This document shows, piece after piece, positions 1,906 through 50,563 of a DNA stretch of 64,000 nt. The position numbers and the translations under genes were made by a program. The DNA comes from Kineosporiaceae bacterium (lineage in GTDB: Bacteria > Actinomycetota > Actinomycetes > Actinomycetales > Kineosporiaceae). The notes beneath the pieces were generated by a model. That model had not been told where the DNA came from and ran no database searches. It saw only the letters and a program-made list of their open reading frames with translations. The DNA lies in NCBI GenBank assembly GCA_016794595.1, contig JAEUJN010000054.1, positions 24,595 through 88,594 of the forward strand, given 5' to 3'. Numbering within the stretch: the first letter of the stretch is position 1; each line of letters starts with the position of its first letter.

Positions 1906-3297
1906 TCACTCCTCGCCGACCTCGATCACCCCCTCCTCCTCCATCCGCATGGTCAGTGGACGGCGGAGGAACTTCGTGATCCACAGCAGGACGAGGATGC
2001 CCGCCCCGAACCAGATGAAGCCGTAGTTGCGCGATTCCGCGGACAGGTTGGCCCACAGGATCAACGTGAACGCCACTCCGATCAGGGGAAGCACGATGTT
2101 CTCGAGGATGTGCTTGGGCGTGCCGAACTGCTTGTTCCGGTAGGCGAAGTACGCGATGACCGTCAGGTTGACGAAGGTGAAGGCAATCAGGGCGCCGAAG
2201 TTGATCAGCGACGCGATGAAGTCCAGGTTGAACGGAATGGCGCCCAGCGACACGACGCCGACGAAGACAATGGCGAACGCCGGGGTGCGGAAGGTCGGGT
2301 GAACCGACCCGAAGGAGCGCGAGATGGGCCCATTGCCGTTGCGTCCCATGACGTACAGCAGCCGGGCCACCGAGGCGTGCGAGGCCAGGCTCGAGGCCAT
2401 GGTGGCCGCGAAGGCCGCCGACGTCAGCAGGATCTTGAAGAACTCGCCGCCGACCTTGAACGCGATCTCCGGCAGGGCGCTGTTCTCCAGGGCGTCATCG
2501 GTGAACCCGTCGAGCGTCGGGAACAGGGACTGGGTGAACCAGGCGGCCACGAAGAAGATCGCACCACCGATCAGCAGCGCGAGCACGATCGCCTTCGGCA
2601 CGGTGTTCGCGTCCTTGGCCTCCTCGGTGTACATCGTGATCGCGTCGAACCCGATGAACGAGAAGCAGACGATCGTGGCCCCGGTGATCAGCAATCCGAG
2701 CTGGGCGTTGTCGTTCCACACCGGAGCCGTCGAGAACAGCGTGCCGTTGCCGTCCCCACCCCAGATCGCCCGCGCCGCGAGGACCAGGAAGACCGCGATC
2801 AGGACGACCTCGAAGACCACCAGCAGGGCGTTCACCTTCGAGGTGTTGGACATGCTGACCATGACCATCGTGGTGACCACCGCGACATAGACCACGACCC
2901 AGATCCACGGCGGGACATTCGGGAAGAAGGACTCCATGTAGCTGCGGATGATCAGGGCGTTCACCAAGGGCAGCAACAGGTAGTCGAGCAGCGAGGACCA
3001 CCCGATGAGGAAGCCGACATTGGGGCTCATCGTCTCGGACGTGTAGGTGTACGCCGATCCTGCCGAGGGGAAGACCCGGGTCATCCGGCCGTAGCTGATC
3101 GCCGTGAAGACCATGGCCAGCAACGCGAGCAGATAGGCGGTCGGGACCAGACCGTTGGTCTCCTCCGACACGATGCCGAAGGTGTCGAAGATGACCGTGG
3201 GGGTCATGTAGCCCAAGCCCAGGAACACGATTGCCCACAGACCGAGCGATCGCGACAGATGAGCGGATTGGTGCGATTCGGTCGTGTTCTGCGACAT
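1906..3297 (-). CDS. APC-family amino acid/polyamine permease
   Basis: About 12 TM helices with APC-like motifs (GLGYMTP, SAGSAYTY, FIGFDAITMYTEEAK). I start at the internal ATG 3297 (MSQNTTESH) rather than the track start 3363. Confidence 0.85.
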   Translation of the reverse strand: MSQNTTESHQSAHLSRSLGLWAIVFLGLGYMTPTVIFDTFGIVSEETNGLVPTAYLLALLAMVFTAISYGRMTRVFPSAGSAYTYTSETMSPNVGFLIGWSSLLDYLLLPLVNALIIRSYMESFFPNVPPWIWVVVYVAVVTTMVMVSMSNTSKVNALLVVFEVVLIAVFLVLAARAIWGGDGNGTLFSTAPVWNDNAQLGLLITGATIVCFSFIGFDAITMYTEEAKDANTVPKAIVLALLIGGAIFFVAAWFTQSLFPTLDGFTDDALENSALPEIAFKVGGEFFKILLTSAAFAATMASSLASHASVARLLYVMGRNGNGPISRSFGSVHPTFRTPAFAIVFVGVVSLGAIPFNLDFIASLINFGALIAFTFVNLTVIAYFAYRNKQFGTPKHILENIVLPLIGVAFTLILWANLSAESRNYGFIWFGAGILVLLWITKFLRRPLTMRMEEEGVIEVGEE

Positions 3298-3573
3298 GGT
3301 GGGCCCCTTCCTGTGGGGCCGGCGGCAGGCGGATCGAGGCACCCCGGCCACCGGCTGTCGCAAGGTAGCAGTTCGCAGTCAGGACTGGGCAGACCTCGAT
3401 TCCGGTTCCCCCGAAGGCACGCACGGTCACAAACTCAGGCATTCGGCCGCTCTGGCCGGTCACGGCTGGTGCCCGACGGGATCTCAGGCCTACCGTGTCA
3501 GGTCTCAGGCGCGAACCCTCTGCCCGGACCGGACCCGAGGGATGCGCCGCCGACTCGGCCCGAGGAGGCCCCC

Positions 3574-4493: not shown

Positions 4494-7160
<2,667 letters not shown>

Positions 7161-7263: not shown

Positions 7264-7369
7264 CCAACCCGCTCATGCTCCGCAGGTGACGAGGTTGACG
7301 GGCACAGTGTCCGCTTTGTCGCACCCTGAGGGAGCATGACCGGACGGCTGGGGAGCATGAGCGGGTTGG
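7264..7369. repeat. Copy A of a ~105-bp palindromic intergenic element
   Basis: Terminal inverted repeats are CCAACCCGCTCATGCTCC and GGAGCATGAGCGGGTTGG. An extra GGAGCATGA unit lies 21 bp inside the right arm. Related copies are at 13485..13589 and 48471..48580. Confidence 0.75.
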
Positions 7370-7544
7370 GGGGCGGGTTGGGGGCGGTGGTCACTCATGC
7401 TCACCGGTCGCCGCGCCGACGGGACCTGTGACCCACCATGGGTATGACAACGGTGTCATGATGGGCCCGAGCGGCCACGACGACGCCGTCGGCCGCCGGG
7501 CCCCGCCGCCCTCGTCGCACCACCCTCAGGAAGCTCTGGTCCCC

Positions 7545-11389: not shown

Positions 11390-13278
<1,889 letters not shown>

Positions 13279-13484: not shown

Positions 13485-13589
13485 CCAACCGCGTCATACT
13501 CCGCAGCCGACCGTCCGTACTCCGCTGCGGACGCCTGACATGGTTGTCTTCCGGGTGCGATACAACGCCTGCGGAGTATGAGCAGGTTG
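13485..13589. repeat. Copy C of the ~105-bp palindromic intergenic element
   Basis: The ends are CCAACCGCGTCATACTCCGCAG ... CTGCGGAGTATGAGCAGGTTG. An inner unit CCGTACTCCGC lies 21 bp from the first. The core TGACATGGTTGTC matches the copy B core TGACATCGTTGTC. Confidence 0.75.
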
Positions 13590-13600
13590 AGTGCGGGCGG

Positions 13601-41695: not shown

Positions 41696-41741
41696 GCTGT
41701 CCTCCCGGGGATCCGGGGGAACCGGTCGCCCGGCCGAGACT

Positions 41742-41830
41742 CGACTCCCTTCGCCGGCATGACCCGGATCAGGTTCGAGGGTCTGCGGTCGCCCGCACTC
41801 TCAGCGCCTCGTGTGGCGCTCCCCTGTCGC
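41742..41830 (-). promoter_or_regulatory. TPP (THI-box) riboswitch
   Basis: The minus-strand RNA reads CGACAGGGGAGCGCCACACGAGGCGCUGAGAGUGCGGGCGACCGCAGACCCUCGAACCUGAUCCGGGUCAUGCCGGCGAAGGGAGUCG. It contains the conserved CUGAGA, ACCUGAUCCGG.U.AUGCCGGCG.AGGGA elements and a P1 stem CGAC/GUCG. Confidence 0.92.
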
Positions 41831-41893
41831 AGCATCGACGGTACATGATGGGGTCTGGTGCGTCACCGGGAGCTGGAGGTCACCGTGGGGTCG

Positions 41894-48470: not shown

Positions 48471-48580
48471 CCCCAACCTGCTCATGCTCCGCAGCCGACC
48501 CGTCATGCTCCGCGGGTGAGGTGTTGACATCGTTGTCGGACGACGCCGCGCGTCACCCACGGAGCATGAGCAGGTTGGGG
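48471..48580. repeat. Copy B of the ~105-bp palindromic intergenic element
   Basis: The ends are CCCCAACCTGCTCATGCTCCG ... CGGAGCATGAGCAGGTTGGGG. A second TCATGCTCCGC unit lies exactly 21 bp after the first. The core is TGACATCGTTGTC. Confidence 0.8.
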
Positions 48581-49498: not shown

Positions 49499-50563
49499 TC
49501 AGAAGCCGTAGGCGGCAGCGAGTTCGGGGTCACGGGCAGCCAGCGCCCGGGCGAGGTCGACCTGCACCTGGCACTGCTTGCAGGAGGCGTCGTCCTCCAT
49601 CCGGCCGTCGAGCATGACCGCGCCGGTGCCGTCCCCCATGGCCTCGATCACCCGCAGGGCGTGCCTGACGTCCTTGGGGTCGGGGGAGAACACCTTCTTG
49701 GCGATGTCGACCTGCACCGGGTGCAGGCTCCAGGCGCCCACGCACCCCAGCAGGAAGGCGTTGCGGAACTGGTCCTCGCAGGCCACGACGTCCTTGATGT
49801 CGCCGAACGGGCCGTAATAGGCGTAGATGCCGTGGGTGGCGCAGGCGTCCACCATGCGCGCGATCGTGTAGTGCCACAGATCCTGCTGGAAGATCCCCCG
49901 GTCGGCCGTGTAGGCCAGGGCGCCGTCGTCCAGGGCCGGCGGGTCCTCGCGGACCAGGTAACCCGGGTGCCCGCCGCCGACCCGGGTGGTCTTCATCCGC
50001 CGGTTGGCCGCGAGGTCGGCGGGGCCGAGCGAGAGGCCCTGCATCCGCGGGCTCGCGCCGCAGATCTCCTCGACATTGGCCACACCGCGCGCGGTCTCGA
50101 GGATGGCGTGGATCAGGATCGGGCGGGTCAGCCCCGCCTTCGCCTCGAGCTGGGCGAGTAGCCGGTCGACATAGTGGATGTCCTCGGCGCCCTCGACCTT
50201 GGGCACCATGACGACGTCCAGCTTGCGCCCGATCGCCGGGACCAGCGTGGTCAGGTCGTCGAGCACCCAGGGCGAGTCGAGCGCGTTGACCCGGGTCCAC
50301 AACTGGGTGTCTCCGAAGTCGGTCGAGGAGGCGATCGCCACCAGCCCGGCGCGCGCGGCCTCCTTGTTCTCCGCCTTGACCGCGTCCTCCAGATTGCCCA
50401 GCAGGACGTCGACCTGGGCGGCCATCTGCGGCACCTTGGCGGCCATCTTGGCGTTCGAGGGATCGAAGAAGTGGATCATCCGTGAGGGCCGGAACGGGAT
50501 CTCCCGGGGCGGGGTCGGTGCCCCGACGGCGAGCGGACGGAAGAAGTCCTTCGGAGGGCGCAT
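49499..50563 (-). CDS. mclA: L-malyl-CoA/beta-methylmalyl-CoA lyase-like (Chloroflexus MclA type)
   Basis: Near-collinear with Chloroflexus aurantiacus MclA as I remember it: [90 protein letters not shown]. Start at ATG 50563. Confidence 0.8.

Follow-up and report, generated by a model that had tools for sequence, protein, structure and literature searches.

The window, by which we mean the whole 64-kb stretch of DNA that was analysed, covers positions 24595-88594 of contig C17 in a Kineosporiaceae genome (G000) with an assembly size of 4.95 Mb, a G+C content of 72% and 123 contigs. It carries three related palindromic elements, designated copies A, B and C, to which no strand was assigned. 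Copy A (7264..7369, 106 bp) lies in the divergent gap between clpB, which is encoded on the minus strand with its start at 7160, and a plus-strand permease gene (start ~7428) with Asp-Al_Ex and TrkA_C matches in Pfam. Its left outer unit, CCAACCCGCTCATGCTCCGC (7264..7283, plus strand), shows no mismatch to the end pattern CCAACCNGCTCATGCTCCGC, and its right outer unit (7350..7369, minus strand) shows one. The right arm also contains an inner unit, GGGAGCATGAC (7330..7340, minus strand), whose partner at a distance of 21 bp is the unit inside 7350-7369, and the element is followed by a G-rich tail, GGGGCGGGTTGGGGGCGGTGG (7370..7391, plus strand), repeating the terminal GCGGGTTGG motif. Copy C (13485..13590, 106 bp) has outer units at 13485-13504 and 13571-13590 and an inner unit at 13515-13525, with A replacing G in all three units. 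It is found between the stop codon (13601) of a minus-strand ORF of 276 aa, for which a Pfam search revealed no match, and the dnaK promoter/HAIR region, dnaK itself starting at 13278. Copy B (48473..48578, 106 bp), with outer units at 48473-48492 and 48559-48578 and an inner unit at 48503-48513, is the best-preserved copy of the window and is located between a minus-strand gene for an HpcH/CitE-like lyase (stop 48615; Pfam) and tetR (start 48426). Copies B and C are each flanked by a stop codon on one side and by the promoter of the following gene on the other. The left-hand neighbours of the three copies were identified via Pfam as ClpB, Hsp70/DnaK and a TetR regulator, confirming the gene identities given in the original prediction, and the distances to the three start codons were also as described there.

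A search with the end pattern, allowing up to three mismatches, yielded six matches in the window, which are the six ends of the three copies, and no others. Shuffled versions of the window gave a mean of 0.06 matches, and none of the 100 shuffles reached six. Alignment of the copies revealed ends reading CCAACCNGCTCATGCTCCGC ... GCGGAGCATGAGCNGGTTGG and an end-to-end length of exactly 106 bp in all three. The three related elements of the original prediction are, hence, real; the boundaries proposed for copy A (7264-7369) proved correct, whereas those of the other two had to be mended to 13485-13590 and 48473-48578, measured from end repeat to end repeat. An extra unit exactly 21 bp from a terminal unit had been described for each copy and is indeed present in all three (A 7330-7340, B 48482/48503, C 13494/13515), that of copy C carrying A for G. 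The core GACAT(C/G)GTTGTC common to copies B and C is genuine as well, being carried by five of 59 copies where 0.08 would be expected. A shared orientation of all three copies, on the other hand, did not hold, as copy A, judged by its inner unit, points the opposite way to B and C.

Within G000, the 20-nt end motif matched 143 times, and these matches formed 61 clean pairs. Fifty-one of the 61 pairs have a length of 106 bp (32) or 107 bp (19), six have a length of 117 bp, and lengths of 105, 108, 116 and 295 bp were found once each. An nhmmer profile search of the same genome unveiled 76 loci distributed over more than 40 contigs. Counting the end motif across 40 related genomes gave 234 matches in G004, 176 in G001, 164 in G003, 78 in G009, 24 in G006 and 19 in G008, followed by two in G002, corresponding to one copy, and none in G005 and G007; in 31 genomes of the order from outside the genus, the end motif stayed at control level. 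Three sister species contain 80-120 copies each, and other members of the genus display few or none. In a scan of 185,579 species, each represented by one genome, the extended motif was repeated in only two MAGs, namely JAXLRT01 (Kineosporiaceae), which is G001, and CAWHEL01 (uncultured Actinomycetota), which is G004. Searching the whole window against Rfam at the gathering threshold provided a single match, a TPP riboswitch elsewhere in the window, and copy B in E-value mode provided only sub-threshold miRNA-precursor hairpins; no Rfam family matched the element. The suggestion of a MITE- or REP-like family is borne out by these further copies in the genome and its relatives, with 76 loci here, hundreds in sister species, a distribution confined to the genus and, as detailed below, orthologous sites of which some are filled and some are empty. 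The rival idea that the similarity stems from local duplication or from chance matching of low-complexity sequence within the window is refuted by the 76 loci on more than 40 contigs, the copies in sister species and the outcome of the 100 shuffles, leaving it with a probability close to nil. A look-alike string, GGTCATGCTCC, seen at four contig ends turned out to be the end of an unrelated insertion sequence.

The layout of the repeat was derived from an alignment of 60 copies together with per-position statistics. Two inverted outer units of 20 bp are placed at a fixed distance, each of them including an invariant 16-mer, AACCNGCTCATGCTCC, which occupies positions 3-18 of the unit and is 90-100% conserved, except for a free N at position 7. 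Further inwards, a linker with the commonest form RGGTGACNN leads to the inner unit YCATGCTCCGC, which duplicates the core of the outer unit in tandem exactly 21 bp closer to the centre; this offset is identical for 74 of the 81 inner units of G000. A variable apex of 24-25 nt follows, the middle of which has an A+T fraction of 0.7 compared with 0.28 for the genome, and the second arm is a mirror image of outer unit, linker and inner unit. Among the 59 non-redundant copies, inner units are present on both arms in 22 and on one arm in 37, where the inner unit faces unrelated sequence and has no pairing partner. Not one of the 59 copies is devoid of an inner unit, although 5.8 such copies would be expected under independent decay of the arms (P = 0.002). 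This rule of at least one inner unit is not genus-wide, since the copies of G004 carry none. Their version consists of the same outer unit, the linker GGGGTACAYGT and an apex of 24 nt, and forms a strict 86-bp class, essentially every one of the pairs listed spanning 82 nt from AACC to AACC. G001 and G003 display the 106/107-bp class, and the length of the element across the family varies between 86 and 118 bp.

Outside this core, the left flank is rich in C and the right flank in G; counted over 20 nt past either end, G amounts to 57% and C to 17%. The tails have a median length of 11 nt, with a range from 0 to more than 33 nt, and a G-quadruplex motif was found in 27% of them versus 1-3% of post-stop control windows. 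Tail lengths are unequal between orthologous copies, and one copy in G003 revealed a terminal motif expanded to five tandem 16-bp repeats. This means that the tails grow and shrink in place, and their length variation is apparently due to slippage. The G003 copy is the one clear case of tandem duplication of the terminal motif. A general origin of the tails from copy-specific tandem duplication of the terminal 11-mer was rejected (9% versus 8% in a swapped-tail control).

The genomic context of the copies was determined using a crude GC3-based ORF filter with gene calls covering 80% of the genome, and on this basis 28 of the 61 copies are hosted by convergent gene pairs, a 2.5-fold enrichment over the background of 18% (p = 9e-7), and only four of the 61 by divergent gene pairs (p = 0.008). 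Copies occur in all gene contexts, the core usually starting 0-50 bp from the nearest stop codon, and the orientation of the inner unit shows no bias with respect to transcription (6 versus 5). The neighbourhood of copies A and C had implied a link to heat-shock promoters, for which no support was found. Of the roughly 76 copies, two are adjacent to HAIR, most plausibly by coincidence, and we infer that the elements next to clpB and dnaK belong to the family like any other copy and do not serve as heat-shock operators. The family accounts for some 76 intergenic palindromes of G000, and annotating those near clpB and dnaK as regulatory operators should be avoided.

Mapping the flanks of individual loci onto sister genomes provided three comparisons of filled and empty sites. 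At C17:21025, the element is present in G000, and G003 has just 26 bp separating two stop codons; at C20:12406, it is again present in G000, and G004 has 10 bp separating the stops; at C80:21739-21796, G000 is empty, and G001, G003 and G004 are filled. The core and its C-rich and G-rich tails came or went as one block in all three comparisons, and in none of them was a direct target-site duplication seen. With C prevailing in the left flank and G in the right one, the flanks represent inverted and not direct repeats. The ortholog of copy A is present in G001 and G003 and absent in G002, G004 and G009. Several kb-scale differences between the species fall exactly at elements, and three variable segments, namely an ABC sugar-transporter operon, a PadR-ABC-FtsX operon and a globin gene, have copies at both borders. 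Indels of at least 1 kb were found for 10 of 21 locus-genome pairs at elements versus 7 of 28 at controls, which were 17 matched element-free intergenic sites, and this excess is not significant (Fisher p = 0.09 by pair, p = 0.14 by site). A role of the elements as hot spots of gene gain and loss is, in these data, a trend and not a demonstrated effect.

Operon-sized segments of variable presence with copies on both sides are what would be expected if the outer units were sites of a site-specific recombinase and the copies bordered exchangeable gene cassettes, as a dispersed analogue of integron attC. The element does share with attC a variable centre enclosed by inverted boxes, outer and inner ones, its placement after stop codons and its ends, which are near RYYYAAC/GTTRRRY (YYYAAC...GTTRRR, close to the R''/R' cores), and an IS110 recombinase of the kind called RNA-guided already uses the outer unit as a site (see below). 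Unlike attC, it is symmetric, dispersed and conserved in sequence beyond structure, its copies being spread over at least 40 contigs with no one-way arrays. The variable segments are, moreover, ordinary operons with their own promoters, the larger indels are not significantly commoner than at controls, and no integrase was noted in linkage with the copies. We, therefore, consider such a cassette system built on a dedicated recombinase very improbable.

Folding revealed long hairpins on both strands, as the original prediction had proposed, with energies of -51 to -72 kcal/mol and z-scores of -5 to -8.7 compared with shuffles. It is conceivable that the RNA hairpin itself is the selected feature, acting as a two-way terminator, an insulator or a stabiliser of mRNA 3' ends, in which case the uniformity of the sequence would reflect common descent and selection against stem mismatches in both directions. 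REP-stabilised mRNA ends are known in E. coli, and terminators of actinobacteria can be devoid of a U-tract. Besides the strong folds, such a role is consistent with the position 0-50 bp after stop codons and the convergent enrichment, with the AT-rich, loop-like apex, with the arms of G004, which pair over 31 nt, with the frequent G-quadruplex motif of the tails and with the order of C-rich tail, C-rich arm (43% C, 25% G), G-rich arm and G-rich tail, which applies in either direction. Hairpin potential and post-stop position fit a function at the RNA level equally well, and long stems selected in both reading directions could hold an ancestral sequence without covariation.

The behaviour of the arms argues against this explanation. 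Left and right arms are identical at 22.63 of 28 positions within a copy versus 22.48 of 28 in chimeric pairs (p = 0.20), mirror pairing showed no excess in any of four segments, and four tests for arm-to-arm covariation of the hairpin were all non-significant. At the polymorphic positions 7, 19, 21, 23, 24 and 28, the arms vary independently of each other, and at positions 19-24 they are unlike in about half of the copies. Due to this lack of covariation, pairing is not the conserved feature; instead, the arms are conserved as primary sequence, each side independently. A selected hairpin would also not account for the conserved inner unit that faces unrelated sequence in 37 of 59 copies, nor for copies in promoter regions that are kept across species, such as the one in the divergent gap between clpB and the permease gene, and strict length classes would be needless for it. 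In contrast to an intrinsic (Rho-independent) terminator, the GC-rich hairpin is present and the U-tract is absent, with a G-rich tail instead of a T-run after the hairpin. We regard an RNA hairpin as the selected feature as possible, if on the unlikely side.

Ten pairs of orthologous copies, whose flanking genes are about 75-90% identical, displayed an identity of 0.90 in the outer units, 0.78 in the inner units, 0.71 in the linkers and 0.65 in the centre, with the length held at 106/107 bp. Across G000, no two copies have centres alike, apart from a 117-bp subfamily whose members are loosely related and a single exact duplicate, in inverted orientation, on contig C54. As the centres are unshared, the copies must be old; nothing indicates that any of them transposed recently, and mobility of the family may by now be lost. 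Near-perfect arms in copies of such age require either purifying selection on the sequence of each arm or a continuing homogenisation of the arms.

The length classes differ between species even at shared loci. The 86-bp copies of G004 occupy positions orthologous to those of 106- or 117-bp copies in G000, G001 and G003, and this was seen for at least five of about 10 shared loci examined (E4, E7, E12, E13/14 and the C80 site). Full-length alignment of both types was possible at locus E4, where the 106-bp form corresponds to the 86-bp one with a single arm carrying a tandem duplication of 21 bp. With many loci changed in parallel, either concerted evolution of the arms or repeated targeted replacement suggests itself. 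The species-specific types at shared loci are the least explained part of the finding.

Constraint that falls inwards from the outer units at orthologous loci would also be expected of a domesticated array of binding sites for a host DNA-binding or nucleoid-associated protein, with four sites on one helical face and purifying selection acting per locus. The invariant 16-mers, the 21-bp phase, the retention of copies at the same locus across species and the length classes about 10.5 or 21 bp apart (86, 106/107 and 117 bp) are compatible with such an array. The copies would then mark boundaries of operons or domains in a BIME-like manner; in enterobacteria, BIMEs bind gyrase and IHF. Whole operons bounded by copies (the ABC sugar transporter, PadR-ABC-FtsX and, as a single gene, the globin gene) are in line with this. 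On the other hand, species of the same genus manage without the element (none in G005 and G007, one in G002), and 86- versus 106-bp copies at shared loci fit concerted or selfish dynamics better than selection per locus. Three length classes are, in addition, too few to speak of helical quantisation. Neither a binding protein nor a candidate for one was found. We consider a domesticated binding-site array unlikely.

With respect to a mobilising enzyme, a six-frame search for Y1/RAYT transposases (Y1_Tnp, PF01797) revealed none in 12 genomes of the genus and family, with matches in the positive controls, E. coli and five other genomes. A serine recombinase, as needed for an IS607-type route, is absent from G000 and G004. 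IS110-family genes are found in all 10 genomes of the genus, with or without the element, and, thus, show no correlation with its presence. No autonomous insertion sequence with matching ends was detected in the 123 contigs of G000, an assembly in which insertion sequences are possibly collapsed. In the search for an autonomous or composite form, the unpaired ends of G000 turned out to be truncated copies, copies interrupted by the insertion sequence or chance matches, and the distant end pairs of G003 to be separate small elements. Genes located between two copies are ordinary ones, encoding a globin, membrane and secreted proteins and the PadR-ABC operon. With neither a mobilising enzyme nor a long form found, the element is to be regarded as non-autonomous.

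Considering these features, we believe that the family is probably a genus-restricted, non-coding, non-autonomous palindromic repeat with REPIN-like architecture and MITE-like behaviour, the arms of which are kept uniform by a sequence-specific process at the DNA level. The arms would be recognition sites, either of a recombinase or transposase that makes no staggered cuts or of a DNA-binding protein, and the 21-bp phase would set the units on one face of the helix. Phased binding sites for a protein, one of the original proposals, are supported indirectly, as they account best for the conservation pattern, in which the 16-mer is invariant with no covariation between the arms, the inner unit is kept even when unpaired, and phase and total length are strict. 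This DNA-level activity would have spread the element and would keep its arms uniform across loci by selection or concerted evolution. A settled copy probably also forms a strong two-way 3' hairpin serving as terminator, insulator or protector of mRNA ends. The hairpin at gene 3' ends is likely a side effect, and such a role would account for copies being tolerated and kept where genes end. For the DNA-level activity, which is the central step, the evidence consists of the conservation patterns.

In the arrangement of its units, the element is closest to the REPINs, known from Pseudomonas fluorescens SBW25 as REP doublets forming hairpins and associated with a RAYT transposase (Bertels & Rainey 2011, PMC3116915). 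REPINs are composed of inverted invariant 16-mers whose distance is fixed; the sequence in between is less conserved, and it is the length of this spacer that matters (PMC3116915). Our family resembles them in its inverted invariant 16-mers at fixed spacing, its variable spacer and its overall length of about 100-110 bp, as well as in its tens to hundreds of extragenic copies, which are lineage-specific and are maintained by vertical descent at orthologous positions. It lacks, however, two features that define REPINs, as no Y1/RAYT was present in the 12 genomes and no compensatory changes between the arms were seen. Furthermore, the conserved unit is not a small palindrome but is tandemly duplicated at 21-bp phase, and the element carries C-rich and G-rich tails. 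The Correia elements (CREE) of Neisseria are bacterial MITEs of about 100-150 bp with terminal inverted repeats of about 20-26 bp, non-coding and intergenic, which can be transcribed as hairpins at gene ends. Like MITEs and CREE, the family described here is short, non-coding and dispersed in intergenic regions, with 20-bp terminal inverted repeats. It differs from MITEs by showing no target-site duplication in three comparisons, and from ordinary decaying MITEs by old copies that keep perfect ends around randomised centres; an insertion sequence with matching ends was not detected among the contigs.

Among bacterial repeats, the family adds a new case to the REP/REPIN/MITE kind. Being a well-defined REPIN-like repeat of a lineage that lacks RAYT, it bears on what spreads and maintains such repeats without the known enzyme. 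Combining invariant arms and randomised centres with a strict phase and length and species-specific classes, it also provides a tractable case for weighing selection against concerted evolution. Four features place it above a routine repeat family: RAYT is absent, the arms are constrained at the level of sequence only, phase and length are strict, and the species differ in the type they carry at shared loci.

The outer unit is also a landing site of an IS110-family insertion sequence with a length of 1,534 bp, encoding a protein of 433 aa with the domains DEDD_Tnp_IS110 (PF01548) and Transposase_20 (PF02371). All three copies of this insertion sequence lie inside an outer unit at GGAGCATGAG^CNGGTTGG, in one orientation relative to the arm, and removing the insertion sequence restores the outer unit. 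These three insertions illustrate that the outer unit is amenable to sequence-specific recognition at the DNA level, and through the family an IS110-type recombinase of actinobacteria has a natural target. Comparable landing pads are known for IS621 of E. coli (PMC11208160) and ISPpu9 of P. putida (PMC12288879), which insert into REP sequences guided by a bridge RNA. The present case is similar in that the IS110-family element was found at the identical position of the repeat in three out of three copies; it is dissimilar in its actinobacterial host, in a repeat that is unrelated in sequence and in a bridge RNA that is only hinted at. One could go further and suppose that the outer units are sites of a non-RAYT site-specific or RNA-guided recombination which keeps the arms uniform across about 100 loci, giving what would in effect be a dispersed integron-like cassette system of actinobacteria, an idea to which we assign a small chance. 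If true, it would explain the 86- and 106-bp versions at shared loci with locus-specific centres, and the same recombination would mediate the gain and loss of operon-sized segments bounded by two copies. A search of the IS110 insertion sequence against Rfam provided no match. Its 5' leader contains the sequence GCATGAG-TTC-AGCGGGG, which resembles both halves of the target and hints at a possible bridge-RNA guide for this element.

The sister species G004 (CAWHEL01) carries a version of the repeat with a strict length of 86 bp (for example C2:576684-576765 and C4:586080-586161; loci L124-L143); its outer unit, the inverted 20-bp end of each copy, is identical to that of the other species, its linker reads GGGGTACAYGT, and the inner unit, a duplicate at 21-bp phase, is missing. 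At orthologous loci, this 86-bp version in G004 is matched by the 106/117-bp version in the source genome (G000) and in two further sister species, G001 and G003, the change between G004 and its sisters being parallel at many loci. The variable centre of some copies displays a small palindrome, GACA-N4-TGTC, at a constant offset, found in five of 59 copies compared with 0.08 expected, namely at 13530-13545 and 48525-48540 of the window and at C27:138469, C34:68385, and C78:149402 elsewhere in G000. It is also present in 4 of the 20 copies of G004 (loci L125, L127, L133, and L143), and may represent a sub-lineage marker or a small binding site.

The repeat also serves as an insertion point for a mobile element. 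Outside the window, G000 carries a 1,534-bp insertion sequence of the IS110 family (C120:16371-17904; locus L019:571-2104), encoding a protein of 433 aa with the domains PF01548 and PF02371. Three occurrences were found in this genome, and further junctions lie at C12:3963, on the minus strand of C13, at C55:140, and on the minus strand of C94. The insertion point is constant, GGAGCATGAG^CNGGTTGG, and falls within an outer unit of the repeat. The 5' leader of the insertion sequence contains GCATGAG-TTC-AGCGGGG, which may be a bridge-RNA target guide.

Some individual copies revealed unusual features. In G003, the terminal motif of one copy (C11:66360-66800, locus L122) has grown into five tandem 16-bp repeats (GAGCAGGTTGTGGGCCT), which shows that the G-rich tails flanking the outer units lengthen through local repeat expansion. 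Near opposite ends of contig C54 of G000, two copies and their flanks (3285-3391 and 50086-50192) are exact reverse complements; this contig either carries a large inverted duplication or has been misassembled. The G000 copy at C17:101954-102059 looks wholly inverted relative to its orthologues in G001 (C16:53182-53281) and G003 (C1:609789-609887), in that its inner unit, as well as a rare GAGCC end variant, lies on the opposite side; this would be explained by either an in-place inversion or an independent insertion. In the copy near dnaK (window 13485-13590), A replaces the G of CATGC in all three units, hinting at homogenisation within the copy; the only other copy with this substitution on both arms is C122:169301, and two such copies genome-wide compared with 0.5 expected are not significant.

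Among Rfam models, only the TPP riboswitch (RF00059; minus strand, 41729-41835) exceeded its threshold in the window, with 66.1 bits against a gathering threshold of 54.3. Four contig ends of G000 (C39:1-140, C42:1-140, C69:1-140, and the end of C29) are identical over about 140 bp. The presence of GGTCATGCTCC in this shared sequence is due to chance, and there is no relationship to the repeat family. It is the terminus of a different repeated element, most likely an insertion sequence at which the assembly breaks.
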